Both the position numbers and the translations under genes were made by a program. From a virus (taxonomy: Duplodnaviria > Heunggongvirae > Uroviricota > Caudoviricetes), in the IMG/VR virus record IMGVR_UViG_2778261465_000003, positions 1 through 13,814 of that record: a DNA stretch of 13,814 nt. The stretch is one strand, 5' to 3'. The notes beneath the pieces were generated by a model. The model did no database searches and was not told the DNA's origin. It saw only the letters and a program-made list of their open reading frames with translations. Below, piece by piece: positions 1 to 13,814 of the stretch. Each line of letters starts with the position of its first letter. The stretch's first letter is position 1.

Positions 1-1074
1 TCATTTGTCGATTTCAATTTTGTCCCATTCCCGTCCACGGCTGTCCCTATACCGCGCCGCCATTGAATCTGATTTATGCCCGAGAAGACGTTGAGCAAAC
101 TTATCGCCAATCTGGTTCCGGTATAGCCTCGCTGACAGGCTACGCAGTTCATGGAATGTTGGCGGGTTTCCATCAAATGAGAGGCCAGATGCATTTCTCG
201 CCTTTGTAAAATACTTTGATACTGTTTTCGGGGAAAGCGGATCGTGATGCTTTGATGCGATTATAGTTTCACTGCTGCTGGCCTCCCTGCATTTCTGTAG
301 TGTATCAGCCAATGAGATATTGAGCGCGTCAATCGTTAGCGTTAGCGGAATGGCGAGTTTAGCCCCTGTTTTACTCTGTTTAATGTGAAGATGGTTGTCG
401 TTTATGTCTGACCATTTCATTCTGCACAAATCGCCGACTCTCTGCCCTGTAACGACGGCCAAATCCATCGCCAGCCTTAGCCAGATAGGGAGAGGTTCGG
501 CTGCATGGTAAATCTCGACATACTCATTAGCTGTCAGCCTTGAGCGCCTTACTTCTGACTTTGCTGTACGGGTTGCTGTTACCGGATTCGTTGCCACATG
601 CCCCTCGGCTATTGCTTCACGAAAAACGTCAACAAGGGTTGACCTGATTAATTTTGCGGAAGCTGCTTTACCTTCTGCTACGTAGGTGTTTAGCATTGCT
701 GCCACTTCTTTCGTTGATATGTCAGTGAGCGGTTTGTCCGGCAATTTTCTTCGGATTGCCCTGATTTTGCTGGCGTAGTCGAGTAGAGTTTTCGGCCTGA
801 TCCCCCTTTCGGTGAGGATTGTTTCATATCGGTCAAGCCACACATGAAGAGTGATTGCGTCACCGCCTTTAATTCTGTCTATTAGTGATTTGCGTCCGCT
901 GTCTGAGAGTAATTCAATATTGGCCTGTATTGCTTCAGTGATTGCTATCCTCCTGTCTCGGCCTAAACCAAACTCTTTACCCGTCCTTGGGTCCCTGTAG
1001 CAGTAATATCCATTGTTTCTTATATAAAGGTTAGGGGGTAAATCCCGGCGCTCATGACTTCGCCTTCTTCCCAT
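1..1074 (-). CDS. int: Phage integrase, tyrosine recombinase (lambda Int-like)
   Basis: 357-aa ORF, colinear with lambda Int as recalled: N-terminal arm-binding region MGRRRSHERRDLPPNLYIRNNGYYCYRDPRTGKEF and C-terminal catalytic region (HELRSLSARLY, LLGHKSD, ARYRD). Overlaps upstream xis by 23 nt as in lambda. Confidence 0.95.
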   Translation of the reverse strand: MGRRRSHERRDLPPNLYIRNNGYYCYRDPRTGKEFGLGRDRRIAITEAIQANIELLSDSGRKSLIDRIKGGDAITLHVWLDRYETILTERGIRPKTLLDYASKIRAIRRKLPDKPLTDISTKEVAAMLNTYVAEGKAASAKLIRSTLVDVFREAIAEGHVATNPVTATRTAKSEVRRSRLTANEYVEIYHAAEPLPIWLRLAMDLAVVTGQRVGDLCRMKWSDINDNHLHIKQSKTGAKLAIPLTLTIDALNISLADTLQKCREASSSETIIASKHHDPLSPKTVSKYFTKARNASGLSFDGNPPTFHELRSLSARLYRNQIGDKFAQRLLGHKSDSMAARYRDSRGREWDKIEIDK

Positions 1075-1270
1075 TTCTGATCCTCTTCAAAAGGCTACCT
1101 GTTACTGGTCGATTTAAGTCAACCTTTACCGCTGATTCGTGGAACAGATACTCTCTTCCATCCTTAACCGGAGGAGGGAATATCCTGCATTCGCGCACCC
1201 ATCGACGAACTGTTTCAAGGCTTCTTGGGCGTCGCTGGCGAGCGTTCCACTCCTGAAGTGTCAAGTACAT
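1052..1270 (-). CDS. xis: Excisionase (lambda Xis-like)
   Basis: Internal Met of track ORF 1052..1360 gives a 72-aa protein MYLTLQEWNARQRRPRSLETVRRWVRECRIFPPPVKDGREYLFHESAVKVDLNRPVTG, near-identical to lambda Xis as recalled. The 30 codons upstream in the track ORF are not Xis-like. Confidence 0.9.
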   Translation of the reverse strand: MYLTLQEWNARQRRPRSLETVRRWVRECRIFPPPVKDGREYLFHESAVKVDLNRPVTGSLLKRIRNGKKAKS

Positions 1271-1387
1271 CGCAAAGTCTCCGCAATTACACGCAAGAAA
1301 AAGCCGCATTGATGCGGCGATGGTAGGTCTGGATATCATTGAGCAATGAACAGGCCTCATCGAGTGTGAGGCGGTGTTATTTCATGG

Positions 1388-1648
1388 TTAGTCCTTGCGT
1401 AGCTCGCTGATTCTTCTGTAAGTCTCTGGTGCTTTGTTTCCGTGTATCTTCATTTCAGACTTCAACAGAGCAACGAGGGAATCCCATTCGTTGAGGATTC
1501 CTTTGAATGCCGGAACGCGCTTTGCAACCTTGTTGAATGAATCTCTGATTTCTGGAATCTGCTCAACAAGTGCAACGCATCGTCTGAAATCGGCTGCGTC
1601 ATGGGGAGCGCCGAAGTGATGACCATAGATATTCTTTTCAGTCCACAT
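1388..1648 (-). CDS. Hypothetical protein (86 aa), early-left accessory gene
   Basis: Track ORF with protein-like composition, immediately upstream of xis on the same strand. The overlapping alternative frame 1462..1758 begins inside a terminator hairpin. No family recognised. Confidence 0.5.
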   Translation of the reverse strand: MWTEKNIYGHHFGAPHDAADFRRCVALVEQIPEIRDSFNKVAKRVPAFKGILNEWDSLVALLKSEMKIHGNKAPETYRRISELRKD

Positions 1649-1744
1649 GCGATTGAGGCAAGAGTTGCGCTACTGATGCCGACATCGCCAGTCGATTGCC
1701 ATTTCAAAACCTTCATAGCCAAATCTGACATTTCTTGTCTCCAA

Positions 1745-1766
1745 TAAAAAACCGCCATCAGGCGGC
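1745..1766 (-). terminator. Intrinsic terminator (minus strand)
   Basis: Minus-strand reading GCCGCC-TGAT-GGCGGT (6-bp stem including one G.U) followed by six U; overlaps the stop codon of the 55-aa ORF. Confidence 0.5.
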
Positions 1767-1925
1767 TTGGTGTTCTTTCAGTTCTTCAATTCGAATATTG
1801 GTTACGTCTGCATGTGCTATCTGCGCCCATAGCATCCAGTGGTCATAGCAGTCATTGATGTTCTCTGCTTCGATAACTCTGTTGAATGGTTCTCCATTCC
1901 ATTCACCTGTGACTCGGAAGTGCAT
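1758..1925 (-). CDS. Small hypothetical protein (55 aa)
   Basis: Below the track threshold; translated by hand as MHFRVTGEWNGEPFNRVIEAENINDCYDHWMLWAQIAHADVTNIRIEELKEHQAA. GGAG Shine-Dalgarno 7 nt upstream of ATG; flanked by terminator hairpins on both sides. Confidence 0.35.
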   Translation of the reverse strand: MHFRVTGEWNGEPFNRVIEAENINDCYDHWMLWAQIAHADVTNIRIEELKEHQAA

Positions 1926-1936
1926 TTATCATCTCC

Positions 1937-1963
1937 ATAAAACAAAACTCGCCGTAGCGAGTT
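1937..1963 (-). terminator. Intrinsic terminator (minus strand) downstream of the DUF2513-like gene
   Basis: Perfect 7-bp stem AACTCGC / GCGAGTT with loop CGTA, followed on the minus strand by UUGUUUUAU. Confidence 0.45.
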
Positions 1964-2008
1964 CAGATATAATTTCCACCAAAGGCAGTAGTTGCTTGAT
2001 GCTAAGAA

Positions 2009-2437
2009 TTATTCAATATCTATTCCTGTAATATCTTTTATCTTTTTCCTTGCAAAGCCTTTTGCTAGTGATTTTGAAACACTCATAAGTGTACTAATTC
2101 CCTCATCCTTAAAGTTTGTTTTTATAGCTTGCCAGACATCCTTTTGACGTAAGTCAGCAATAAAATCATGCCCTCTTGCTGTCAACCTCAGTGGTACTTC
2201 GATCCAACTATATCCAACACCTTCCCCTAACGCTTTGGACATTATATGACCGAACCCAGGTTTTCCATCAACCCTGACTATTAATTCGTAGTCACATAAT
2301 AATCGCATATGGAAAATAAAATCTTGGTCATATCTATTAAAACCATTATCCTCTAGTTCACTAAGCATCGTGTCAGGGCCACGAGTTTTTTCGAATGCGA
2401 TAAGTAGATCTTTTAGATATTGCTGGTCTAATTTCAT
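2009..2437 (-). CDS. Hypothetical protein, possibly DUF2513-like (142 aa), AT-rich moron
   Basis: Track ORF with markedly lower GC than its neighbours (roughly mid-30s percent by eye). N-terminus MKLDQQYLKDLLIAFEK...YDQDFIFHMRLLCDYELIV resembles the DUF2513 pattern as recalled; weak assignment. Confidence 0.55.
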   Translation of the reverse strand: MKLDQQYLKDLLIAFEKTRGPDTMLSELEDNGFNRYDQDFIFHMRLLCDYELIVRVDGKPGFGHIMSKALGEGVGYSWIEVPLRLTARGHDFIADLRQKDVWQAIKTNFKDEGISTLMSVSKSLAKGFARKKIKDITGIDIE

Positions 2438-2465
2438 TGCCGCCTCCGTGACATGTCACAGAGAT

Positions 2466-2804
2466 TTATATCATTAATTTTGTTTCGTGCCAGCCTTTGG
2501 TCACCCAGCATTGTGAGTCACCATTACACGGGCATGAATTAACAGGAACTCTCTCGCCGCACTTACCGCAACGTTTTCTGCTGATCGATTTTATACGCCA
2601 GCGCACACGTGCATCATCCTGGCGGCTCAGTAACGCGATGTACTCACCAAACTCGCAAGGCGCACGCCTGAAGCGACGCGTGGCACAGTTACGCTCCAGC
2701 ATTTCAATTTCCTGAGCATCAAGTACAAGCTCCAGCTTACGCATACCGGATGATGCTTGCTTGGCTCTCTGATCGGCTTTGTGCTCTGTTGCTGATTTAG
2801 CCAT
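2466..2804 (-). CDS. Hypothetical Cys-rich protein (112 aa) with putative C-terminal zinc ribbon
   Basis: Track ORF; AGGAAA Shine-Dalgarno about 9 nt upstream of ATG at 2804. C-terminal CGKCGERVPVNSCPCNGDSQC (CxxC...CxC) and an N-terminal region with a possible ribbon-helix-helix-like beta strand (KLELVL). Confidence 0.5.
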   Translation of the reverse strand: MAKSATEHKADQRAKQASSGMRKLELVLDAQEIEMLERNCATRRFRRAPCEFGEYIALLSRQDDARVRWRIKSISRKRCGKCGERVPVNSCPCNGDSQCWVTKGWHETKLMI

Positions 2805-2848
2805 TCTGCTTTTCCTGCATCAGGAGAAAGACAATCATGGCGGCGCGG

Positions 2849-2944
2849 ATACTTCCGGTATCTTTTTACGCGATATTCCCCTTCAATGGCACATACAAAA
2901 AGAGAGCCATCCACAGGAGTGATTGAGGAATCGACAACCAGCAA
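2849..2944 (-). pseudogene. Relic of an S24 peptidase / repressor (UmuD, LexA, cI-type) C-terminal domain
   Basis: First about 32 codons of track ORF 2627..2944 (TTG start, stop immediately upstream) read LLVVDSSITPVDGSLFVCAIEGEYRVKRYRKY, resembling the UmuD core ([29 protein letters not shown]) and the lambda cI C-terminal domain as recalled. The rest of that ORF is out-of-frame overlap with the neighbouring gene. Confidence 0.4.
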
Positions 2945-2997
2945 CGCTTAATTATCTATAGTGTCGTATTTGCTTCATAAAATATGGCGAATAACAC

Positions 2998-3033
2998 AAA
3001 GCCCGCAGCAGCTCATTGTGCGGGCTTTTCTTA
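2998..3033. terminator. GC-rich hairpin, candidate bidirectional intrinsic terminator
   Basis: Perfect 10-bp inverted repeat AAAGCCCGCA / TGCGGGCTTT with an 11-nt loop, followed by TTTTCTT on the plus strand and a U-rich tract on the minus strand; sits between two minus-strand genes. Confidence 0.5.
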
Positions 3034-3097
3034 TACCTACTTCCTAGAGATAATTCTATGGAGGCATTAAATCAATACTGTCATTGGTAATATCATA

Positions 3098-3712
3098 TTA
3101 TCTAAAAGTCTTTCCACTTTTAACATCTAGGTATATTCTGTTCGACAACGTCATTCCTCCGCAATATGTGAAATAGATGTTTTCACCCTTATTGCTTGAT
3201 GCCATCCACCCTCCGATTTCCTTAAAATCGCTTTCCGTGCAGACCCCTTCATTTATTAACTTCCTAGCTGCCGAAGAAAACTCTTTTTTGTATATACGGT
3301 AGTCATCAGATCCTTTGATTAAAGTATCATCTCCGCTCGCATTTTCAGCAGGATCTGATGGCCTTTCACTGCTAAGATCACTAAGTTTAACCCATTCTGA
3401 AAACTTGCCATTAACGATTCCATTTTTTCTTGTGCAGGATTTATTACCTTCTTTAATATATTCGCTTTCCCCTCCAACACATGAGGCTGAATATGGCTCA
3501 GTTATACGAACCCATTCACCTTTTTTTTCTAGAAAATCTACGCCTTCCCTGAAAAATAGTTTCCCAGCCACTCCACATTTACTTGAAGGGCAGGTATGTC
3601 TTTCCGTTCGATCAACAACAACCCATAGTTTTGATTCATTTTTTGCCATTGCCGATGGTATTTGAGATGAGACAATTAACGTAAGCCCTAAAATTAGTAT
3701 TGATTTTTTCAT
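3098..3712 (-). CDS. Secreted Cys-rich protein of unknown function (204 aa, Sec signal peptide), AT-rich moron
   Basis: N-terminus MKKSILILGLTLIVSSQIPSAMA has a basic n-region, hydrophobic core and AxA cleavage motif. Six Cys in the mature part, consistent with periplasmic disulfides. Low GC; terminator hairpin downstream. Confidence 0.7.
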   Translation of the reverse strand: MKKSILILGLTLIVSSQIPSAMAKNESKLWVVVDRTERHTCPSSKCGVAGKLFFREGVDFLEKKGEWVRITEPYSASCVGGESEYIKEGNKSCTRKNGIVNGKFSEWVKLSDLSSERPSDPAENASGDDTLIKGSDDYRIYKKEFSSAARKLINEGVCTESDFKEIGGWMASSNKGENIYFTYCGGMTLSNRIYLDVKSGKTFR

Positions 3713-4010
3713 TGTAATTTCCTTTTACTTTTTACAAAGCGTTTAATCATGGCTGATTATCTCTAAGCGTAGTAACAGCCTTGTGCGAAACATGTTACCA
3801 AATCGCCATTTCAGTGTATCCGCAGTTAGGCTGCCACTTCAAGGATTCCTAATTACATGGTACGTAAGCGTAAAATCCCGTTGGTTGGCTGGTAATAACT
3901 CTGATCAAATCTCCCTTGTCTTTTGCTCTTACGTATGCAGCTCTTGTGTATTCAACCCAGGCCTCCAGTTCAGCAATACGCTTACTTCCATCCGAGATAA
4001 CACCTTCTAC

Positions 4011-4262
4011 TCACGCTGCTCGTTGAGTTTTGATTTTTGCTGTCTCCAGCTCAACACGCAGTTTCCCCACCGTTAGCGCAATATCCTCGTTCTCCTGGTC
4101 GCGGCGTTTGATGTATTGCTGGTTTCTTTCCCGTTCATCCAGCAGTGTCAGCACAATCGATGGTGTTACCAGCTCATGGAAAAGGTCCGCGTCAAATCCC
4201 CAGTTGTCATGCATTGCCTGCTCTGCCGCTTCACGCAGTGCCTGAGAGTGAATTACGCTCAC
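4011..4262 (-). CDS. Hypothetical protein (83 aa, GTG start), possibly truncated by an in-frame TGA
   Basis: Track ORF overlapping the upstream TraR-like gene by 4 nt (translational coupling). The same frame stays open for about 53 codons beyond the TGA, and a codon-matched antisense ORF (3783..4076) spans the junction. Confidence 0.45.
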   Translation of the reverse strand: MSVIHSQALREAAEQAMHDNWGFDADLFHELVTPSIVLTLLDERERNQQYIKRRDQENEDIALTVGKLRVELETAKIKTQRAA

Positions 4263-4480
4263 TTCGAACCTCTCTGTTTACTGATAAGCTCCAGATCTTC
4301 CTGGCAACTTGCACAAGTCCGACAACCCTGAACGGCCAGGCGTCTTCGCTCATCTATGGGATCGCCACACTCACAACAATGAGTGGCAGATACAGCCTGG
4401 TGGTTCAGGCGGCGCATTTTTATTGCTGTGTTGCGCTGTAATTCTTCAATTTCTGATGCTGAATCAATGATGTCTGCCAT
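4259..4480 (-). CDS. TraR/DksA family C4-type zinc-finger protein (73 aa)
   Basis: Motif CCECGDPIDERRRLAVQGCRTCASCQ (CxxC-x17-CxxC) near the C-terminus, typical of phage TraR/DksA-like proteins. Confidence 0.75.
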   Translation of the reverse strand: MADIIDSASEIEELQRNTAIKMRRLNHQAVSATHCCECGDPIDERRRLAVQGCRTCASCQEDLELISKQRGSK

Positions 4481-4534
4481 CTTCCATTAATCCCTGAATT
4501 GTTGGTTAATACGCTTGAGGATGAATGCGAACAA

Positions 4535-4556
4535 TAAAAAAGGAGCCTGTAGCTCC
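4535..4556 (-). terminator. Intrinsic terminator (minus strand)
   Basis: Minus-strand stem GGAGC / GCTCC with a 5-nt loop, followed by six U; 23 nt downstream of the gene ending at 4579. Confidence 0.5.
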
Positions 4557-4578
4557 CTGATGATTTTGCTTTTCATGT

Positions 4579-4794
4579 TCACCGTTCCTTAAAGACGCCG
4601 TTTAACATGCCGATCGCCAGGCTTAAATGAGTCGGTGTGAATCCCATCAGCGTTACCGTTTCGCGGTGCTTCTTTAGTACGCTACGGCAAATGTCATCGA
4701 CGTTTTTATCCGGAAACTGCTGTCTGGCTTTTTTGATTTCAGAATTAGCCTGACGGGCAATACTGCGAAGGGCGTTTTCCTGCTGATGTGTCAT
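4579..4794 (-). CDS. Hypothetical protein (71 aa from internal ATG; track ORF extends to 4860)
   Basis: Track ORF 4579..4860. The first 22 codons (MHFSGSGLHILCAYACRHGTCS) have no Shine-Dalgarno and odd composition, so the start at MTHQQENALRSIARQ... is preferred. Confidence 0.45.
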   Translation of the reverse strand: MTHQQENALRSIARQANSEIKKARQQFPDKNVDDICRSVLKKHRETVTLMGFTPTHLSLAIGMLNGVFKER

Positions 4795-4870
4795 TGAACA
4801 AGTCCCATGTCGGCAAGCATAAGCACACAGAATATGAAGCCCGCTGCCAGAAAAATGCATTCAGTGGTTG

Positions 4871-5062
4871 TCATACCTGGTCTCTCTCATCTGCTTCTGC
4901 TTTCGCCACCATCATTTCCAGCTTTTGTGAAAGGGATGCGGCTAACGTATGAAATTCTTCGTCTGTTTCTACTGGTATTGGCACAAACCTGACTCCAATT
5001 TGAGCGAGGCTATGTGCCATCTCAATGCTCGTTCTTAACTCAACAGGAGATGCTTTGTGCAT
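4871..5062 (-). CDS. Hypothetical protein (63 aa)
   Basis: Track ORF with a strong GGGGAG Shine-Dalgarno 4-5 nt upstream of ATG at 5062; acidic C-terminus. Confidence 0.5.
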   Translation of the reverse strand: MHKASPVELRTSIEMAHSLAQIGVRFVPIPVETDEEFHTLAASLSQKLEMMVAKAEADERDQV

Positions 5063-5176
5063 ACAGCTCCCCGTTTATTATTTATCTCCTCAGCCAGCCG
5101 CTGTGCTTTCAGGGGATTTCGGGTAACAGAAAGGCCGGGAAATACCCAGCCTCGCTTTGTAACGGAGTAGACGAAA

Positions 5177-5533
5177 GTGATCGCGCCTAACGGGGGCGGC
5201 GATTGGCAGGTTAAACCTGAACGTCGCAAGGCAGAACGAATCGACTACGAATCCTTCCTGAACGCCTACAACACCGAAGTCGGTGACAGACTTCCACACG
5301 CTGTTGCGGTCAACGAGAAACGAAAACGCCGCCTGAAGAAAATCATTCCGCAACTGAAAACGCCAAACGTGGACGGTTTCAGAGCGTATGTCAGGGCGTT
5401 TGTGCATCAGGCCAAGCCGTTTTACTTCGGAGACAACGACACGGGCTGGACGGCCGATTTTGATTACCTGCTGAGGGATGACTCGTTAACGGGGGTAACC
5501 GTACAGGTTTTACCTCGTCACGTGGCTTTCTGA
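5177..5533 (+). CDS. Possible C-terminal remnant of a phage replication-module protein (118 aa, GTG start)
   Basis: Protein-like ORF (...[25 protein letters not shown]) that begins directly after an in-frame stop with only GTG available. Tentative resemblance to the conserved C-terminal domain of phage replication proteins. The antisense ORFs 5090..5407 and 5035..5229 look like artefacts. Confidence 0.35.
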
Positions 5534-5885
5534 TGGCTGAAAGACGCTTTACCAGCTCGTCCATCGCCTGACTCGATGTATCGATGGTTCCGTTCTGAAT
5601 TGGTTCACGCATTTCATCCATGATTTCCAGCACCAGGCGGCGGTGATAGTTATCCGCGACCATTCCGGCATATCCCTTCAGGTTTGCGGCACTCGGGCAG
5701 TTTTTGCTGGTCATCAGGATTGACGTGAAATGCTCCTCTCCGCACGCCTCGGCAACCATCAGCGCGTCGATTAGGTTTCTGTTTCTCGCCTGCTTGCGGA
5801 TAACCTCGAAGGCTTTCCGGTAGAGCGGAATTGAAAACGCTTCCGGCTCCAGCGTTGCCAGAACGTCGCTGGCGGTTGGTGTTAA
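5500..5885 (-). pseudogene. DnaB-like replicative helicase N-terminal domain fragment, inverted relative to the nin/late genes
   Basis: Minus-strand translation ...[73 protein letters not shown]... is colinear with the E. coli DnaB N-terminal domain as recalled (...FYTRPHRHIF...LSKNTPSAANISAYADIVRERAVVREMI...). No ATPase domain is present; similarity is lost at about 5885. Confidence 0.55.
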
Positions 5886-6349
5886 AGGCAGCAGAGAAGA
5901 AACGACGACGAGAGGAGCAGAAACAGAAAGATAAACTTAAGATTCGAAAACTCGCCTTAAAGCCCCGCAGTTACTGGATTAAACAAGCCCAACAAGCCGT
6001 AAACGCCTTCATCAGAGAAAGAGACCGCGACTTACCATGTATCTCGTGCGGAACGCTCACGTCTGCTCAGTGGGATGCCGGGCATTACCGGACAACTGCT
6101 GCGGCGCCTCAACTCCGATTTGATGAACGCAATATTCACAAGCAATGCGTGGTGTGCAACCAGCACAAAAGCGGAAATCTCGTTCCGTATCGCGTCGAAC
6201 TGATTAACCGCATCGGGCAGGAAGCAGTAGACGAAATCGAATCAAACCATAACCGCCATCGCTGGACTGTCGAAGAGTGCAGGGCCATCAAGGCGGAGTA
6301 TCAACAGAAACTTAAAAAACTGCGAAACAGCAGAAGTGAGGCTGCATGA
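5831..6349 (+). CDS. ninG: NinG (Rap)-like recombination protein, N-terminus replaced or truncated
   Basis: From [56 protein letters not shown]... to the end it is colinear with lambda NinG as recalled. The first 18 residues ([21 protein letters not shown] start) are unrelated and lambda's N-terminal Cys-rich region is absent. Confidence 0.8.
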
Positions 6350-7017
6350 ATATCTACGAAAGAATTGATGGCAGCAAATACCGAAATATTTGGGTAGTTG
6401 GCGATCTGCACGGATGCTACACGAACCTGATGAACAAACTGGATACGATTGGATTCGACAACAAAAAAGACCTGCTTATCTCGGTGGGCGATTTGGTTGA
6501 TCGTGGTGCAGAGAACGTTGAATGCCTGGAATTAATCACATTCCCCTGGTTCAGAGCTGTACGTGGAAACCATGAGCAAATGATGATTGATGGCTTATCA
6601 GAGCGTGGAAACGTTAATCACTGGCTGCTTAATGGCGGTGGCTGGTTCTTTAATCTCGATTACGACAAAGAAATTCTGGCTAAAGCTCTTGCCCATAAAG
6701 CAGAAGAACTTCCGTTAATCATCGAACTGGTGAGCAAAGGTAAAAAATATGTCATCTGCCACGCCGATTATCCTTGTGACGAATACGAATTTGGAAAGCC
6801 AGTTGATCATCAGCAGGTAATCTGGAACCGCGAACGAATCAGCAACTCACAAGACGGGATCGTTAAAGAAATTAAAGGCGCGGACACGTTTATCTTTGGT
6901 CATACGCCAGCAGTGAAACCACTCAAATTTGCCAACCAGATGTATATCGATACTGGGGCAGTGTTCTGCGGAAATCTCACATTGATTCAGGTACAGGGAG
7001 AAGGCGCGTGGGCATAA
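6346..7017 (+). CDS. ninI: Ser/Thr protein phosphatase (lambda PPase, orf221/NinI-like metallophosphatase)
   Basis: 223 aa, near-identical to lambda phosphatase as recalled ([54 protein letters not shown]...GNHEQMM). GDLHG / GDLVDRG / GNHE metallophosphatase motifs; ATGA overlap with ninG. Confidence 0.95.
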
Positions 7018-7496
7018 GAGAACTAAACCTCACCAAAGAACAGCATGAGTGGCTGAATGGCTGGCTTGAACTGTGGGGCGCATGGGTTTATTCAGGTCGT
7101 CTGGAAAAGCGCATGAGCAGCGTAATAGCGAAGTTCATGGAGAGCGTAGAGCCGGGAAGAGTTATGACAAGGCCAATGTGTAATGATGATGATGGAATGT
7201 TGATTTCTCAGGTCGTCGATTCCGTCATGTACATTGACAAGAAAGCCTTTGGCATCCTCCTCAGCTACTACGCCCACGGCTCTTCCAAGCACGCCATTGC
7301 ATCTTACTATCATCGCGTCGCAAGACCTCGCAAGATGTTATGCCGGGGCGGCGGGCGCATTCAAAAACCATCGCTCGCAACCTGTCGACGGGAAGTTGAC
7401 GAAATCCTCAATGCCTCGTTGTTTATGATTTACCCGGTTCTGGATAGTGCGTTTAAAAACCGGAAACGTGTAGAGAAAATTAAACATGTAGCATAG
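7008..7496 (+). CDS. Q: Late-gene antiterminator Q (Phage_antitermQ family, Q21/Q82-like)
   Basis: 162 aa with WGAW near the N-terminus and the [13 protein letters not shown] motif typical of this Q family; sits just upstream of a promoter-like TTGACA and the lysis cassette. Start is a GTG overlapping the phosphatase stop. Confidence 0.85.
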
Positions 7497-7502
7497 AACG
7501 TG

Positions 7503-7540
7503 TTGACATCATTGAGCAAATGAGCAACACTATTCGCATA
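7503..7540 (+). promoter_or_regulatory. Candidate late promoter (pR'-like) and Q-utilisation region
   Basis: Consensus -35 TTGACA at 7503..7508, immediately after Q and upstream of a hairpin plus T-run. No convincing -10 at 17 +/- 1 bp, so the call rests on position and the -35 only. Confidence 0.3.
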
Positions 7541-7541
7541 A

Positions 7542-7583
7542 GCTGCCGTTAGTGACTCTTAAGTTGCAACGGTGGCTTTTTTT
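7542..7583 (+). terminator. Candidate tR'-like intrinsic terminator
   Basis: 9-bp stem GCTGCCGTT / AACGGTGGC (two G.U pairs) with a 17-nt loop, followed by seven T. The large loop makes this moderate. Confidence 0.4.
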
Positions 7584-7587
7584 ATTT

Positions 7588-7662
7588 GGGTCAGTCGTAT
7601 AAAGGTCATTACGGAAGGCTGTTAACCTTCTTATCGTGGTTCGAGTCCACGCTGTCCCGCCA
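7588..7662 (+). tRNA. tRNA-Asn (anticodon GUU)-like, one acceptor-stem mismatch
   Basis: Hand-folded cloverleaf: acceptor GGGTCAG / CTGTCCC (T.T at pair 4-69), D-loop AAAGGTCA, anticodon stem GAAGG / CCTTC, loop CTGTTAA (anticodon GTT), T-arm CGTGG-TTCGAGT-CCACG, discriminator G, encoded CCA. Anticodon and T loops match E. coli tRNA-Asn as recalled. Confidence 0.6.
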
Positions 7663-7667
7663 AATAT

Positions 7668-7743
7668 GCTGGTTTAGCTCCAATGGTAGAGCGGTCGCCT
7701 TGTAAGCGAATGGGTAGCGGTTCAAGTCCGTTAACCAGCACCA
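7668..7743 (+). tRNA. tRNA-Thr (anticodon UGU)-like
   Basis: Hand-folded cloverleaf: perfect 7-bp acceptor GCTGGTT / AACCAGC, D-arm GCTC-CAATGGTA-GAGC, anticodon stem GTCGC / GCGAA (27-43 mismatch), loop CTTGTAA (anticodon TGT), T-arm AGCGG-TTCAAGT-CCGTT, discriminator A, encoded CCA. Confidence 0.7.
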
Positions 7744-7861
7744 TAACTGAGCCGTAGCCACTGGATGTCCTGAATTCATCAGTGATAGTTATGCTGCGGT
7801 CTTCTTTTTCTCCCTTCCCAATATAAGAACTACGCAATCCGTTACTGGCGGAGGCGTTGCT

Positions 7862-8077
7862 ATGAAATCAATGGACAAAATCTCAACTGGCATTGCCTAC
7901 GGAACATCCGCTGGTAGTGCGGGATACTGGTTTTTGCAGTGGTTGGATCAGGTCAGTCCATCACAGTGGGCTGCGATTGGGGTGCTTGGAAGCCTTGTGT
8001 TGGGCTTTCTCACCTATCTGACAAATCTGTACTTCAAAATCAGAGAAGACAGAAGAAAGGCTGCGAGAGGTGAATAA
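7862..8077 (+). CDS. S: Class II holin (phage 21 S21-type pinholin) with dual-start motif
   Basis: 71 aa, [71 protein letters not shown], matches phage 21 S21 as recalled. Met1-Lys-Ser-Met4 gives antiholin and holin starts; two transmembrane segments. Confidence 0.95.
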
Positions 8078-8574
8078 TGCCTCCATCATTACGAAAAGCC
8101 GTTGCTGCGGCTATTGGTGGCGGGGCTATTGCTATAGCATCTGTGTTAATCACTGGCCCAAGTGGTAACGATGGTCTGGAAGGCGTCAGCTACATACCAT
8201 ATAAAGATATCGTTGGTGTATGGACTGTATGTTACGGGCATACCGGAAAAGACATTATGCTCGGTAAAACGTATACCAAAGCAGAATGCAAAGCCCTCCT
8301 GAATAAAGACCTTGCCACTGTCGCCAGACAAATTAACCCGTACATCAAAGTCGATATACCGGAAACAACGCGCGGCGCTCTTTACTCGTTCGTTTACAAC
8401 GTTGGTGCTGGAAATTTCAGAACATCGACGCTTCTTCGCAAAATAAACCAGGGCGATATCAAAGGCGCATGTGATCAGCTACGGCGCTGGACATACGCTG
8501 GCGGTAAGCAATGGAAAGGTCTCATGACTCGTCGTGAGATTGAGCGTGAAGTCTGTTTATGGGGGAAGCAATGA
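8077..8574 (+). CDS. R: SAR endolysin (phage 21 R21-like, T4-lysozyme fold)
   Basis: 165 aa. N-terminal signal-anchor-release domain rich in Gly/Ala ([20 protein letters not shown]) followed by a lysozyme domain ([18 protein letters not shown]...); matches phage 21 R as recalled. Start overlaps the holin stop. Confidence 0.95.
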
Positions 8575-8969
8575 AGATCCACTACAAGATAATTATCTTC
8601 GCGTTCGCGTTCGCATTGAGCGTACTGGGCGTCATCGTTTGGTCAGCAAGCCATTATCACGATAAGTATCAGGCGGAACGGCTACGCGCAGATGCTGCCG
8701 AGCAGAACGCCAACGCCGCCGAAGCGATCACCGCCAACGTCATTCGGTCTGTGAACATCATCAACGCCATTGCAGAGGCCAACCAGGATGCAAAGAACCA
8801 GATCACACTGGAGTCACAGGGAGCCCAAGCAGATATCAAAGTGGCTATTGAGAATGATGACTGCGCTCATCGGCCTGTGCCTCCTGCAACTGCTCACCGG
8901 CTGCGGCAATTCGCGGACAGTTTACGTACCGGTATCGGTAGTGCCTCTACCGGCAAACCTGACAGCTGA
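8571..8969 (+). CDS. Rz: i-spanin (Rz-like inner-membrane spanin)
   Basis: N-terminal transmembrane segment ([20 protein letters not shown]) then an Ala/Gln/Glu-rich periplasmic region; directly follows the endolysin; GGGGGAAG Shine-Dalgarno before ATG 8571 (track ORF starts at 8559). Confidence 0.8.
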
Positions 8970-9111
8970 GACGCAACAGCCAGCCATTCCCGAACCGCTG
9001 ACCTATGGGGCCAGTCTGGAGCTGAATGTTAGCCTGCTATCGGCGCTGGGTCAGTGCAACATCGATAAGGCTAGTATCAGGAAGATTGAAGAGTCTCGGA
9101 CCTCTCTGTAG
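8854..9111 (+). CDS. Rz1: o-spanin (Rz1-like outer-membrane lipoprotein), overlapped architecture
   Basis: +1 frame starting inside Rz: [17 protein letters not shown] with lipobox LTGC, then a Pro-rich mature region ([20 protein letters not shown]). Runs 142 nt past the Rz stop. Confidence 0.75.
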   Translation: MMTALIGLCLLQLLTGCGNSRTVYVPVSVVPLPANLTAETQQPAIPEPLTYGASLELNVSLLSALGQCNIDKASIRKIEESRTSL

Positions 9112-9147
9112 AAGACTATTTTGCTGCCATGAAGAAGCTTTATATCT

Positions 9148-9177
9148 TTGGTCAATACATCGAACAGATCAGATAAT
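9148..9177 (+). promoter_or_regulatory. Candidate sigma70 promoter for the protease gene
   Basis: TTGGTC, 18-bp spacer, GATAAT in the AT-rich spacer after Rz1, about 55 nt upstream of the protease ATG. Confidence 0.35.
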
Positions 9178-9231
9178 TCTTATGTGATTGATGCTATATT
9201 TATCCCCTATTTAAACATGGGAGTTACGGAT

Positions 9232-10032
9232 ATGTCTGTCAGTCAAGATATTTATAAGTCTACACTTAGAGTTGAAAGTGATACTCCAGAGGGAACCTCG
9301 GTAGGAACTGCTTTCTGGTTTTGCTTTGTTATGGAAGGTGGTGAAGATATTGTTCCACTCTTGGTAACTAATAAGCATGTTGTTAACGGGGCAACAGAAG
9401 TTAGACTACGTCTAAACATTACCGACAGCGCAAATCCTGAGATAAAATTTTATAACCTAACAATTTCAGAGGGGGCAAATGCGTTCATTATGCACCCTGA
9501 TGATAATGTTGATATATGCATATTGCCTATCGCTGGATTGCTGAATGAGATGGAGAAAAGTGGCATTAGCCCAGAACTCTTCTTTTTCACAGATCGTCAG
9601 ATGCGTGGTAACAATTACATTACTCCTGTCGAAGATGTTTACATGACAGGATATCCAAATGGATTATGGGATTCTGTAAACAATAGGCCTGTTACCAGGA
9701 AAGGCATCACAGCATCATCACCTATGGAAAACTGGAAGGGTAAGCCTGAATTCCTCATTGATATGGCTTGTTTCGGTGGTTCTAGCGGTTCTCCCGTTTA
9801 TATAATGAACCAAGGCTCATATGCTACTAATGATGGTATTGCTATGGGGGAGAGATTAATTTTCCTTGGGTTGTTGTATGCAGGGCCAGTAACGAATGTT
9901 AGCGGGAATATTGAAATTATTGACGTACCAACAGTCGCTACACCAGTTGTGCGTTCTGAAATTACAATGAATCTCGGATTTGTTATTAAAGCAGAGAAGC
10001 TAAATGACTTTAAGCCTCTCTTGGGGATTTAA
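9232..10032 (+). CDS. Cytoplasmic trypsin-like serine protease (chymotrypsin fold, Trypsin_2-like), AT-rich accessory gene
   Basis: 266 aa from ATG 9232 (GGGAG Shine-Dalgarno 8 nt upstream; track ORF starts at a TTG at 9148). Catalytic triad in canonical order and context: His in LLVTNKHVV, Asp in DDNVDICILPIAG, Ser in GGSSGSPVY. No signal peptide or transmembrane segment. GC clearly lower than the flanking phage genes. Confidence 0.75.
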   Translation: MSVSQDIYKSTLRVESDTPEGTSVGTAFWFCFVMEGGEDIVPLLVTNKHVVNGATEVRLRLNITDSANPEIKFYNLTISEGANAFIMHPDDNVDICILPIAGLLNEMEKSGISPELFFFTDRQMRGNNYITPVEDVYMTGYPNGLWDSVNNRPVTRKGITASSPMENWKGKPEFLIDMACFGGSSGSPVYIMNQGSYATNDGIAMGERLIFLGLLYAGPVTNVSGNIEIIDVPTVATPVVRSEITMNLGFVIKAEKLNDFKPLLGI

Positions 10033-10037
10033 CACAA

Positions 10038-10059
10038 GCCGCCTCCGGACGGTTTTTTT
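10038..10059 (+). terminator. Possible weak intrinsic terminator after the protease gene
   Basis: Imperfect GC hairpin (CCGCC..GGACGG) followed by seven T, beginning 6 nt after the protease stop. Confidence 0.4.
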
Positions 10060-10071
10060 ATTGCTATTACA

Positions 10072-10097
10072 AAAGCCACTCCATGCCGAGTGGCTTT
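10072..10097. repeat. Perfect 10-bp inverted repeat (stem-loop)
   Basis: AAAGCCACTC-catgcc-GAGTGGCTTT. Could be a minus-strand terminator (short U tract follows on that strand) or a protein or RNA structural site. Confidence 0.5.
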
Positions 10098-10165
10098 GAT
10101 AATGGCTTATACCCTACACGGGATAACTTAACTGATATCCCAACAAGCGGATAAAGAGGTTCTCA

Positions 10166-10291
10166 ATGTCCGACATCTACCAAATCATGTTAACCACCCA
10201 AACAGGCGAAACCTTTACGGGTAAGATGTCACGACGTCAGCGTGAGCTGGTTAATGGCTTTATGCAGCCGGCTACCGAGATGGGCGAGTAG
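10166..10291 (+). CDS. Small hypothetical protein (41 aa)
   Basis: Below track threshold; MSDIYQIMLTTQTGETFTGKMSRRQRELVNGFMQPATEMGE, with AAGAGG Shine-Dalgarno 6 nt upstream of ATG. Confidence 0.35.
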   Translation: MSDIYQIMLTTQTGETFTGKMSRRQRELVNGFMQPATEMGE

Positions 10292-10380
10292 AATAACTCC
10301 ATTAGGAGAATGTGGAACCATTACACTTTGAGCCGTTAACTGATATTGATAAAGGTAAATAATATCGTGGTTAAGGTTTT

Positions 10381-10653
10381 CTAATAGCCAGCCATTTGCA
10401 AAATCACAGTTGCAGCAGCAGCGAAAGCTGCATATGAGTTATATTTAGACTGTAACCGCGCAGTTAAGAAAAATTCGTGAAGATCTACATTTTTTTGGGG
10501 ATCATCAAATGTAATTGCTACAACGGTGCTTCTACCTGTTTTGACTTTGGCTGTTGCTGATTTGATCCATAACCCAGCCGATAAAAAACCAAAGAAAATT
10601 GATAGTGTATGATGGTCAATTAACCAGTTTTTAATTAGTAATAAATCACTCAT
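10381..10653 (-). CDS. Small hydrophobic (putative membrane) protein, about 90 aa, AT-rich
   Basis: Track ORF 10381..10698, start taken at internal ATG 10653 because the track start lies inside terS. One clear hydrophobic segment (LSIFFGFLSAGLWI) and a hydrophobic C-terminus. An open frame this long is unlikely by chance in AT-rich DNA. Convergent with the protease unit. Confidence 0.45.
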   Translation of the reverse strand: MSDLLLIKNWLIDHHTLSIFFGFLSAGLWIKSATAKVKTGRSTVVAITFDDPQKNVDLHEFFLTARLQSKYNSYAAFAAAATVILQMAGY

Positions 10654-10677
10654 TTTCAATCCAATTGAGACTTTGCC

Positions 10678-11229
10678 ATGGCACTCACCGACAAACAAGA
10701 AATGTTCTGTCGCGAGTACCTCATCGATTTAAACGCCACACAAGCGGCTATTCGGGCGGGGTACAGCGCAAAGACAGCCAACCGTACTGCGTCCGAAAAC
10801 ATGTCAAAACCTGACATCAAGTTAAGAATCGCTGAACTGAAAGCGCAACGCAATGATCTTGTTGGTATTAATGCAGAATATGTACTTAATCGCCTTCTTG
10901 AAATCGACCAGATGGATGTGCTTGACATTCTCCTGCAAAACGGTGAGCTAAAACCCATTAAAGACTGGCCTAAGGTATGGCGCACAACGCTATCAGGAAT
11001 GGATGTCGTGGAGATGGTATCCGCAGATAGCGCCGCACTTCTGAAGAAAATCAAATGGCCTGATAAGGTTAAAAATCTTGAGTTGCTTGGGCGTCATGTT
11101 TCTGTTCAGGCGTTTAAAGACAATGTCAAAAATGAAGTGACTGGCGCTGATGGAGGACCAGTCAGAACAGAAATTACCAACTTAACGCCGGAGCAGGCTG
11201 CAGAGGCGTATAGAAAAATGATGGGCTAA
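10678..11229 (+). CDS. Terminase small subunit (Terminase_2-like, N-terminal helix-turn-helix)
   Basis: 183 aa; N-terminal [57 protein letters not shown] is characteristic of phage TerS; immediately followed by the large subunit. Confidence 0.85.
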
Positions 11230-11231
11230 GT

Positions 11232-12194
11232 ATGCCGTTACCATTCCCCTTCGATTTTAAACATCCTGATTACCAGATGGTTTTTGAATGGCGGATGGAA
11301 CGCCTACAGCGCATTCGCCAGAATCCTGAAATATTGCCCGTGTTGAAGCAGTTTTACCGAACCAATCCGGCTCAGTTCATCATCGACTGGGGCATGACAA
11401 CGGACCCGCGTAATATTGATTATGGCCTGCCGGTAACCATTCCGTTTTTACTCTTCCCTAAGCAGGAGGAGTGGATCCACTGGATTATGGAACGCTGGAG
11501 CAATCGGGAGAATGGTATTACCGAAAAATCCCGTGAAATGGGGCTCAGTTGGACCGCGATCGGACTGGCCTGCTCGCTTTGTCTCTTCAACAAAGAAATG
11601 GTTATCGGTTTCGGCTCCCGTAAAGAGGAATACGTCGACAGCACCGGTGACCCGAAAGCATTGTTCTGGAAGGCGCGCAAGTTCGTGGAAACACTACCTG
11701 TAGAGTTTCGCGGTTCGTGGAGCGAGAAGAAGCACGCGCCATATATGCGTGTTGAGTTTCCTGAAACTGGTGCCGTTATCAAAGGCGAGGCTGGCGATAA
11801 TATTGGTCGTGGTGACCGTACCACGCTTTATCTGGTTGATGAGGCTGCATTCCTTCAGCGTCCTCTGCTGATTGATGCGGCGTTGTCACAAACGACGCGT
11901 TGCCGTATTGACCTGAGTTCAGTTAACGGCATGGCGAACCCGTTCGCTCAGAAGCGTCATGGCGGGAAGATACCGGTATTCACATTCCACTGGCGGGATG
12001 ATCCTCGCAAGGATGAAGAGTGGTATCGCAGGGAATGCGAGAAAATCGATAATCCGGTGGTGGTGGCACAGGAACTTGATCTGAACTACAGCGCATCAGC
12101 GGAAGGCGTCCTGATTCCATCCGAATGGGTACAGGCTGCCGTTGATGCGCATATCAAACTGGGTATGGTGCTGTTTCTAATGTTACCGGTGTAA
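11232..12194 (+). CDS. Terminase large subunit, ATPase domain only (C-terminal nuclease domain missing)
   Basis: 320 aa with a Walker-B-like [10 protein letters not shown] and TerL-like N-terminal half, but far shorter than an intact TerL of this type, which is usually well over 400 aa. The ORF ends in a short non-homologous tail where another frame takes over. Confidence 0.8.
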
Positions 12195-12724
12195 CCCGCC
12201 ACAAACTCTATGAAAACGATAATGGTTCGGAGGACGGTAACGGGTTACCGCCACACTCTGTTGCTGTAATTGTGGATGGCGGTGATGTGACGGATATTGC
12301 TCAGGCTATCAGAGGGAATAAAGGCCAGGGAACAGCCACTCACGGTACAACATCCGTTACGGTTCCGGATAAATACGGCAATCCCCATGTAATCAAATTT
12401 TCGCGTTCCAGTGATGTGCCTGTTTATGCCCGGATTAAATTAAAAGTTTTTACGGGTTATACCTCACAGATAGGGCAGCAGATCCAGCAGGCTATTTCCG
12501 ACTATATCAATAGTCTGATGATTGGTGATTCGGTCCTTTTAAGTCGCATTTACTCACCGGCGAATCTTGGCGTGGTGAGTGGCGGGAATGCACGCTATTA
12601 CGATATTCAGGAACTGACGATTGGGAAATCCCCGGGGGCTTTGTCGTCATCAAACATTGATATCAGATACAACGAATCTGCGTCCTGTACCCCGGAAAAT
12701 ATCGTTATAACGGTGGAGTCATGA
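12146..12724 (+). pseudogene. Baseplate-J-like protein, C-terminal fragment (e14 JayE-like), no proper start
   Basis: Frame open from 12146, overlapping the TerL tail; only a GTG at 12272 is available. Tentatively resembles the C-terminal part of baseplate J family proteins; ATGA-coupled to the downstream tail gene. Confidence 0.5.
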
Positions 12725-13401
12725 GCAAATACACCGAACTAATCACGAACTACCACGCCACCAAACCTAAATTTCTTGCACATGTTGATCTGATGACCCG
12801 GCCGCTTATTGATGTTGCGGCTGCCACCAGAGGGCTGATTACTGCATTTGATATTGACTCTGCGGTTGGTGTGCAACTTGACATTCTGGGATTGTGGATC
12901 GGACGTAGCCGTGTTGTCAGCCAGCCTATTTCAGGTGTCTATTTCAGCTGGGATACCGACGGGCTTGGATATGATCAGGGTGTATGGCAGGGGCCATACG
13001 ATCCTGATTCCGGATACATGTACCTCAGCGATGAAACTTATCGTGTCATCCTTAAAGCGAAGATTGCGATTAATAACTGGGACGGACGGAATGATTCGCT
13101 TCCGGCAATTCTTGACGCGGCAACAGCAGGATCCGGACTGCGAATGCAGATAGTCGATAACCAGGACATGACGATATCGGTCTGGGTCTTTCCTGATACT
13201 GATATTTCAGATGTATCGCGTGAGTTAATTGCGGCAATTAAACAGGGGTATCTCACAGTAAAAGCCGCCGGGGTATGGGCGGGTGGCATTGAAACACCTT
13301 CGGTGGAAACCCCATCGGAAGGCTCAAAATTTTTTGGTTTTGATATGGATAACGAATTCATCAGTGGTTTTGATGTAGGAGCATGGGGAGTATTACTCTG
13401 A
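12721..13401 (+). CDS. Phage tail/baseplate protein, DUF2313 (YmfQ / Mu gp48-like)
   Basis: 226 aa; resembles E. coli e14 YmfQ-type tail proteins as recalled; translationally coupled on both sides. Confidence 0.65.
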
Positions 13402-13814
13402 TGGCGAAAAATGACTTTAAAGCGTTTGCAACGGATCGAAATGCCAATGTTATATCGCAGGAGAAATGGGAAGCGTTGCCCGCGCTTTTATCTGGATTTA
13501 CAGCAGGGAAAGCCTCCAGTGCGCAAGTCAATAAGGTTATTCGGCAGGCCAGCTTTATTGCTGCAGCTCTGGCCCAGTTTGTAAGTGATAAAACGCAACG
13601 GGATGTGCTTGATAATGGTGATCTGCCCGGTTTTGTTGAATTGCTGGGATCGGGGTTTGCTGTTGAATACCTGAGCCGCAAGAATCCGTTTGGCGATATC
13701 AAATCGGATGGCACGGTGAAAACGGCTCTCGAAAACCTTGGTTTGGGAGAAGCGGCTAAAAGGAATGTAGGGACAGGGGCGAATCAGATACCTGATATGG
13801 GTAGCTTCACGCTT
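13401..13814 (+). CDS. Side tail fibre protein, N-terminal part (continues beyond the window)
   Basis: ATG at 13401 overlapping the upstream stop, GGGGAG Shine-Dalgarno; [60 protein letters not shown]... is typical of a tail-fibre N-terminal anchor region. Open to the window end. Confidence 0.7.

Follow-up and report, generated by a model that had tools for sequence, protein, structure and literature searches.

What brings two neighbouring phage genes of sharply different base composition together, and did they arrive in the genome separately? The question is raised by two minus-strand genes, here denoted A and B, that lie between positions 2,009 and 2,804 of a caudoviricete sequence (IMG/VR record IMGVR_UViG_2778261465_000003, positions 1 to 13,814); the entire stretch of 13,814 nucleotides (nt) is the window analysed here. 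An original prediction, made from the sequence alone, treated A and B as independently acquired morons stacked in an early-left accessory region, with B being a DUF2513-like protein and A a zinc-ribbon protein that could be a small regulator or an anti-restriction or anti-defence factor. The best reading of the comparative sequence data is that A and B form a conserved mobile pair, rather than morons that met by chance in this phage. The spacer between the two genes contains a perfect 12-bp palindrome, GTGACATGTCAC, that recurs at the 3' end of A in numerous phages and prophages.

The basic description of the pair was confirmed: the two genes lie exactly 28 nt apart (2438–2465), each is preceded by its own Shine-Dalgarno sequence (Table 1), and they differ widely in GC content. 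B, with 36.1% GC (28.0% at third codon positions, GC3), falls within the bottom 0.015% when compared with every 429-nt slice of the window, the values for A and for the whole window being 50.1% (GC3 48.7%) and 46.5%. Full-length homologues of both genes are widespread, which indicates that A and B are real genes. Their proposed early-left accessory location also holds, the pair being located beside xis/int of a lambdoid prophage.

The arrangement is not peculiar to this phage. A directly precedes B in 14 divergent loci, in which A is 47–62% and B 59–73% identical to the window counterparts. The spacing in these loci is conserved to within 3 nt: the gap between the tblastn matches is 29–32 nt, where the 28 nt of the window measure 32. 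In three further loci, A and B are 93–517 nt apart. Taken over unrelated prophage contexts, the identity of B extends down to 54%. These A–B loci have no other genes in common with the window and represent several contexts: beside xis/int, at the end of a P22-like ea array (ead, DUF551, ASCH, A, B), in a nin region from Yersinia, just before terS/terL, and beside alpA-int. The GC contrast travels with the pair. In every pair, B lies 10–20 GC points under A, in loci with 42–54% GC, and both genes track the GC content of the host, B from 36% to 46% and A from 48% to 64%. As far as these genomes go, the contrast is a stable property of the two families and not a sign of recent separate arrival; because it is stable across host backgrounds, it provides no evidence of recent acquisition, contrary to the way it had been read.

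The two genes are separable all the same. Among 5426 complete Escherichia coli genomes, 677 carry A or B, with the pair present in 142 and A without B in ~500, that is, A is far more often alone than paired. Podophages of the phiV10 and epsilon15 types, as well as TL-2011b, carry A alone (~91% nucleotide identity), as the last early gene before terS, and distant DUF2513 genes are found without A in 57 of 59 genome loci. Together with the 14-point difference in GC content and the frequent disruption of A next to an intact B, this separability is what speaks for A and B being unrelated morons, acquired separately and merely stacked, with a functionless spacer. We consider this improbable: the same order and spacer recur in 14 divergent loci that share no other genes, the GC contrast persists across hosts, B retains the 3' end of A when A is lost, and A belongs to an array of overlapped genes. 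A survey of genomic contexts, which had been proposed as a check, thus shows both that A and B can part and that they recur with conserved order and spacing.

In the relatives of the window, A is the translationally overlapped last member of an ea-type gene array and, for this reason, does not qualify as a moron. Neither of two marks of a moron, namely insertion between otherwise adjacent elements and an own terminator combined with deviant base composition, was found for A; the similarity of the window to phiV10 and to a P22-like prophage (L236) starts exactly at the ATG of A (2804). B shows both marks. In phiV10 and epsilon15, a terminator directly follows the palindrome of A, with no gene between them, and terS comes next; in the window and 14 other loci, B is located between the palindrome and the terminator. 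B is also followed by a terminator of its own (1964–1945) and deviates in composition (36.1% against 46.5% GC). Hence B looks moron-like, an AT-rich single gene with a terminator after it, and the description as a moron suits B and fails for A.

In N15 and at the locus of a 37%-identical homologue, the A-family gene is followed by genes for related proteins of 73–78 amino acids (aa) (L224, 4355–4591; L233, 15294–15515), and N15 gp47 gives a weak hint of a FeoC-like winged helix (E 0.027). A comparison of B with the small gene that follows N15 gp46 gave no sign of homology (hhalign probability 0.56%). The combination of an A-family gene with a small winged-helix gene downstream may be more general.

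The palindrome is kept in divergent A–B pairs while the flanking bases vary. The fetched loci, 2.3 Mb in total, contain 184 exact copies of GTGACATGTCAC, of which 133 are at the 3' end of A, where our arithmetic gives a chance expectation of less than one copy. Loci with A contain 12.3 copies per 100 kb, as against 0.93 in A-less loci, and all eight copies in the latter are from loci with A remnants or from an A-bearing phage. By this measure, the palindrome belongs with A, not with B. In A-only phages, it overlaps the last codon and the stop codon of A (GTG TGA CAT GTC AC), and in a 50%-identical A homologue, it comes right after the stop. Variants accompany the more distant homologues: GTGACTGGTCAC covers the stop of N15 gp46 and is followed by a Shine-Dalgarno sequence and a small gene, and GTGACCGGTCAC is located inside the longer 3' end of a Mu-like homologue. 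The central dinucleotide varies accordingly, AT, TG or CG, the last of these in the Mu-like locus.

Some phages carry several such sites. There are three copies of GTGAC-N2-GTCAC in each of phiV10 (L230; 2262, 19493 and 39101), epsilon15 (L232; 2142, 19517 and 39612) and N15 (L233; 4551, 9238 and 15270). The copies in epsilon15 and phiV10 occupy equivalent places: at the stop of A, just past the terL terminator, and at the end of the long structural operon, immediately ahead of the operon's terminator. The terminator beyond the copy at the stop of A is 22 nt away in epsilon15 and ~37 nt away in phiV10, and four of the six copies in these two phages directly adjoin an intrinsic terminator. Of the N15 copies, one is between the end of the repA operon and the terminator of this operon, from which it is ~115 nt away, one is inside repA, and one is at the stop of gp46. 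The complete lambdoid phage Chlobot, which encompasses the same A–B pair, has exactly one copy, at the A–B junction. A palindrome tied to the A family and present in several copies at operon ends is a new element, of which our literature searches found no mention.

Several more familiar identities of the palindrome were considered and rejected. The phiV10 record terminates within the palindrome, but a cos or pac site is at odds with the annotation of the phiV10 large terminase as PacB-like, which implies headful packaging, and with the presence of the palindrome at other places in phiV10 and, in lambdoid phages, at a distance from the terminase genes. With respect to a LexA or CRP box, the outer CTGT/ACAG positions are, by eye, not conserved, and the GTGA-N4-TCAC spacing is unlike that of CRP. 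An immunity-repressor operator does not fit either, the annotated repressor sites of epsilon15 having another sequence, ATTACC-N-GGTAAT. In E. coli strain E143, a similarity that ends in the palindrome reflects merely an IS1 insertion.

A search of Pfam detected no family for A; in PHROGs, A matches phrog_536, labelled 'transcriptional regulator', which includes epsilon15 gp49, phiV10 p55 and N15 gp46. The family is small, with 104 clusters at 50% identity among 1.84 billion representatives. In structure predictions, which were made on single chains, the strand-helix-helix core of A superimposes on MazE7, KacA, TacA, NikR, ParD and Arc. Accordingly, the protein is predicted to be a basic ribbon-helix-helix (RHH) DNA-binding protein with a zinc module, which fits the suggestion of a small regulator. 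A contains seven cysteines, of which C40, C79, C82, C91, C93 and C99 are invariant among close relatives; in distant relatives, C79 and C82, which form a CxxC motif, are invariant, C99 nearly so, and a further cysteine usually occurs near positions 89–93. The zinc-ribbon label agrees with the Cys-rich character of A and its invariant CxxC; on the other hand, there is no second CxxC, and the predicted structure has no more than a tiny beta bridge. Membership in the DksA/TraR family was not supported, the best profile match in the PDB being TraR with a non-significant E of 0.2 and Pfam giving nothing. The same applies to the YbfE/LexA-regulated protein family (NF008671), with which residues 9–48 align at 16.8 bits, the cut-off being 62. 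From the co-occurrence of A and the palindrome, we infer that A, as a dimer, binds the palindrome, which is likely to be its cognate site.

The palindrome could, instead of being the site of A, serve a host factor, given that it consists of matS half-sites, the window site being matS minus one central base, or it could be a recombination or module-boundary sequence that marks operon ends where cargo inserts. This explanation would account for the sequences beside the second copy in phiV10-type phages, which differ from phage to phage, for the position at operon ends by terminators of four of the six epsilon15 and phiV10 copies and one of the three N15 copies, and for the survival of the palindrome without intact A. 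We rate this explanation as unlikely to be correct. The 13-mers of the matS type are present in none of the loci, and the spacing at the centre, usually critical for dimeric binders, is different. Moreover, the copies are essentially confined to A-related phage contexts, and the central dinucleotide shifts along with the distant A homologues.

B is better anchored in a known family, the DUF2513 assignment being borne out by a profile score of 42.7 bits against a cut-off of 29.6 (PF10711), with residues 2–115 covering positions 1–100 of the 100 in the profile. The DUF2513 signature (H43, D49, RLTxxGHDF and W102) is complete in B and 81–100% conserved among 48 sequences down to 23% identity. The predicted fold is a three-helix bundle with a beta wing, i.e. 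a winged helix, and a C-terminal helical extension. Judging from this model, B is a PadR/MarR-like winged-helix protein, and as such it may bind DNA; the RLTxxG wing motif is typical of PadR/HxlR-type proteins. Searches of solved structures with A and B, as single sequences and as profiles, yielded no match (the best for B was a bacteriocin, E 0.62), and the viral structure library returned only uncharacterised proteins for B. No candidate operator for B was found. The suggested anti-restriction or anti-defence role gained no evidence: neither A nor B matched a PADLOC model (PADLOC-DB 2.0) with E values up to 0.1, and there was no known defence, toxin or anti-defence family for either protein in PADLOC, NCBIfam, Pfam or PHROGs. 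Homology to characterised core phage proteins, which would have spoken against the accessory status of the two genes, was not found for A or B.

The distant DUF2513 genes have no recurrent partner, with 81 different Pfam families among 129 neighbouring proteins. A second DUF2513 subfamily, 47–50% identical to B (L008, L012, L015, L017, L018, L020 and L136–L143), is not linked to A; its genes have a conserved stretch ~60 nt upstream, roughly cattcac..gtgcctg.GATAATgctaaatt, which looks like a promoter and operator of their own. In three Yersinia-type prophages (L106, L107 and L109, 4082–5788), a gene for a 568-aa protein lies just upstream of the DUF2513 gene; the N-terminus of this protein looks like that of an AIPR-type abortive-infection protein.

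The junction suggests how B could be expressed. Where B follows A, ~10 extra bases create a box of the TGaTATAAA type that is absent from A-only phages. All B-linked A lineages have TATAAA, TATAGT or TATAAC over the stop codon, with xTA as the last codon in every case, and xTGGCA exactly 17 nt upstream of the box. B loci that lack A (L005/L102, L104 and L105) retain ~45 nt of the 3' end of A, starting near xTGGCA. In six of the seven A-less B lineages, the TATA box is kept or improved to TATAAT, without the coding constraint; the palindrome is kept in about three of the seven. These patterns suggest that the end of A contains a putative promoter for B and that the palindrome lies close to the +1 position.

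We tentatively combine these elements in a single chain, whose probability as a whole we put a little short of even. A would be an RHH/zinc DNA-binding protein, with the palindrome as its likely cognate site, and B a winged-helix cargo for which the end of A serves as control region and which can be expressed in the absence of A. In the related phages, A is the last gene of the ea-type accessory array, with the palindrome at or just after its stop; B would be AT-rich single-gene cargo inserted between the palindrome and the operon terminator. The signals of B would be drawn from the last ~45 nt of A: the -35-like xTGGCA, 17 nt, and TGaTATAAA over the stop, followed by the palindrome at about +1 and then by the strong Shine-Dalgarno sequence of B. 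With its expression signals within the end of A, B could be produced independently, and probably in the lysogen as well. A factor bound to the palindrome would gate B, the best candidate being a dimer of A where A is intact. That B is an accessory regulator expressed in the lysogen is our guess.

A number of observations weigh against this chain. The -10-like box of the window is without the conserved T at -7, and the -35-like element is weak and confounded with the invariant GWH codons of A, i.e. with a constraint on the protein. A promoter scan of the minus strand between 1300 and 4000 identified no sigma-70-type promoter, and in one A-less locus (L105), the junction ahead of B has no TATA box and is of the A-only type. 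The palindrome is still present in loci with a broken or missing A, and some A–B pairs (L112 and L132) have lost it; therefore, A may not be needed at the palindrome. The A protein of the window carries F45, C50 and S60 at nearly invariant positions and may, on this alignment, be impaired. With a pI of 4.6, the helix-turn-helix part of B is acidic, an unusual property in a protein that binds DNA. Nothing relevant emerged from literature searches for DUF2513, PF10711, the palindrome and epsilon15 gp49.

The palindrome might also act in RNA, as a hairpin that masks the Shine-Dalgarno sequence of B and so couples its translation to that of A, or as an element that affects processing or stability. 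In the window, the palindrome is the core of a 9-bp RNA stem that includes GGAGG (dG -10.8 kcal/mol, z -2.4 by RNA folding). In loci of every type, the stop of A falls within the palindrome or immediately ahead of it, and the palindrome is followed by a Shine-Dalgarno sequence and a start codon in many phiV10-type loci as well as in N15 and the window. Outside the palindrome, however, the stem is not conserved in other lineages, where it is mostly unpaired and shows no covariation; the 12 bp alone give 4–5 pairs, and it is the sequence that is conserved, not the pairing. For other copies, in epsilon15, phiV10 and N15, there is no cistron downstream, and B stays intact despite an early stop in A, which would abolish coupling. 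An RNA role accordingly appears to have a small probability, and we retain the reading of the palindrome as a DNA site.

The contrasting fates of the two genes bear on which of them is maintained. Among 38 E. coli-type viral contigs with an identical junction, B is full length in all 38, whereas A is intact in 15; the remaining 23 have a stop at codon 40 (18 contigs), a stop at codon 79 (one) or a 5' truncation (four). The 38 contigs are not independent, many being one prophage in different strains, and by kind there are at least four separate lesions. In a widespread E. coli lineage (L079–L103), TGA replaces the codon for the invariant Cys40 of A and B is intact; a second allele stops at Cys79. 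Compared with a 94%-identical prophage, dN/dS is 0.39 for A and 0.11 for B. Because B remains intact while A decays, and given the lower dN/dS of B, these sequences indicate that B is the selected part of the pair and that A is dispensable in the lambdoid hosts. It follows that A is not an antitoxin for B, and a toxin–antitoxin or abortive-infection pair, with A as the antitoxin and repressor and B as the toxin, although suggested by the many RHH antitoxins (MazE, KacA, TacA, ParD) among the structural neighbours of A, by the antitoxin-first order, by the small size of the proteins and by the palindrome near the junction, is very improbable and largely refuted by these 23 of 38 loci with a full-length B. 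The predominance of solitary A, the solitary state of distant B genes, the winged-helix fold of B and the lack of a match of B to any toxin or defence family also speak against such a pair.

A broader version of the preferred reading, which we consider rather unlikely to hold in full, is that the A family is an uncharacterised phage class of RHH/zinc proteins that read matS-like GTGAC-N2-GTCAC boxes and control read-through between operons or insulate them, or else organise the phage chromosome in a MatP-like manner; in the lambdoid prophages, this system would be reduced to one box that gates a winged-helix cargo.

Table 1. Genes and candidate signals around the A–B junction (window coordinates)
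Feature	Coordinates	Strand	Remarks
Gene A	2466..2804	-	112 aa, basic, pI 9.5; predicted N-terminal helix, ribbon-helix-helix core and C-terminal four-Cys zinc module (C79, C82, C91/C93, C99)
Gene B	2009..2437	-	142-aa DUF2513 protein; predicted winged helix-turn-helix, extended wing, C-terminal helices
Shine-Dalgarno-like AGGA, gene A	2813..2816	-	8 nt before ATG
Shine-Dalgarno GGAGG, gene B	2443..2447	-	5 nt before ATG; inside the 9-bp RNA stem built on the palindrome in the window
Palindrome GTGACATGTCAC, perfect, 12 bp	2448..2459		In the A–B spacer; abuts the Shine-Dalgarno sequence of B; sole exact copy in the window; putative site of A
Extended -10-like TGaTATAAA	2465..2473	-	Putative promoter element of B; overlaps the last codons and stop of A
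-35-like CTGGCA	2488..2493	-	4/6 matches; 17 nt upstream of TATAAA, inside the invariant GWH codons of A
Intrinsic-terminator-like hairpin after B	1945..1964	-	Terminator scan; dG -12.1 kcal/mol, z -4.5; then UUUUGUUUU
UmuD-like (S24 peptidase) internal gene fragment	2837..2944	-	108 nt; pseudogene remnant; marks a mosaic junction upstream of A
Terminator-like hairpin ending the 204-aa gene (3098–3712)	2990..3029	-	dG -22 kcal/mol, z -2.9; then a U-rich run

The minus strand carries, in this order, a 204-aa gene, a terminator, the UmuD-like fragment, A, B, a terminator, a 55-aa gene, small open reading frames (ORFs), xis and int. The pair had been described as bracketed by terminator hairpins. 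There are indeed hairpins on both sides; the upstream one ends the 204-aa gene, and with the UmuD-like fragment lying between it and A, the bracket is looser than stated. This upstream hairpin was not called by the terminator scan, its loop apparently exceeding the 8-nt limit of the scan. The UmuD-like fragment matches phrog_811 and phrog_10470 (E 7e-12 and 6e-13), with a weak match to Peptidase_S24, and at the equivalent position in E. coli strain WAT, RefSeq has a partial 'DNA repair protein' pseudogene. A 105-aa ORF (2627–2944, minus strand) overlaps A in another frame and is annotated as 'UmuD-like protein' in phage Chlobot; this ORF is an artefact, the UmuD-like part being limited to its first 36 codons (2837–2944). 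Gene A of Chlobot is intact and called as a 46-aa protein.

The window is 99.96–100% identical, over 1–5189 and 5884–7922, to a prophage beside torS in strain WAT. It is missing 8.6 kb of the WAT prophage (L001, 15490–24063), with the genes exo, bet, gam, kil, cIII, repressor, cro, cII, O, P, ren and ninB, and has ~700 nt of other sequence at 5190–5883 instead. In the ORF list, the large terminase of the window (320 aa, 11232–12194) looks truncated. Given the lost segment and the apparently truncated terminase, the E. coli lambdoid prophage to whose early-left arm the pair belongs is probably defective. Several other features of the window were recorded. A 73-aa TraR/DksA-family zinc-finger gene (4259–4480, minus strand) belongs to the same early-left operon as A and B. 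A 294-aa trypsin-like serine protease (9148–10032, plus strand), which matches the PADLOC candidate model PDC-S45 (E 1e-100), is encoded between the lysis genes and terS, in a cargo slot where distant DUF2513 genes often occur. A search for known RNA families in the window detected two tRNAs and nothing else, namely tRNA-Asn(GTT) and tRNA-Thr(TGT) (7588–7743, plus strand), between the Q antiterminator and holin genes.

A and B themselves are ordinary accessory genes, members of common prophage families to which no function has been assigned. The link of the A family to a 12-bp site provides a direct experimental handle, and if A acts at these sites, it could show how phages of the epsilon15 and N15 types separate or connect their transcription units. 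Neighbouring phage genes may differ sharply in GC content without this being a sign that they were acquired recently and independently. As for annotation, at least one deposited phage (Chlobot) has an incorrect call for A, alongside the artefactual 'UmuD-like' ORF.

Comparison with known systems delineates what is familiar in this locus and what is not. B resembles the DUF2513, PadR, MarR and HxlR proteins in its Pfam score, in the winged helix-turn-helix fold with a C-terminal helical extension and in the RLTxxG motif, and differs from the PadR, MarR and HxlR regulators in having no recognisable ligand-binding domain and an acidic helix-turn-helix part; we know of no DUF2513 member with a known function. 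A is similar to RHH proteins (Arc/MetJ/CopG, YbfE and the antitoxins) in its core fold, small size and basicity and in the weak YbfE match, and differs from them in the extra N-terminal basic helix and the four-Cys module, both outside the aligned ~50–65 residues, as well as in the position of its candidate site at the 3' end of its own gene and not in a promoter. The RHH protein MatP, which binds matS, contains a four-helix bundle and a coiled coil. A has no sequence similarity to MatP (hhalign probability 0.15%) and neither the bundle nor the coiled coil, with a predicted zinc module instead. The matS site is 13 bp long (GTGACRNYGTCAC; PMC6907758, Table 2); the half-sites of the palindrome are equal to those of matS, whereas its centre is 2 bp rather than 3 bp, and with a site of 12 bp and no 13-bp form in any locus, the locus does not belong to the MatP/matS system.

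Morons of lambdoid phages were described by Hendrix and colleagues. B is like them as an extra gene of deviant composition between A and the terminator, two elements that adjoin in phiV10 and epsilon15; it differs from them in that its promoter is putative and in that it travels with a piece of the neighbouring gene, and A falls outside the definition. The stoperators of cluster A mycobacteriophages are numerous short sites at the boundaries of transcription units, which are asymmetric and bound by the immunity repressor. In epsilon15, phiV10 and N15, the palindrome is likewise a short site repeated at transcription-unit boundaries, but it is symmetric, occurs three times per genome, adjoins intrinsic terminators in several cases, and is distinct in sequence from the repressor sites of epsilon15.

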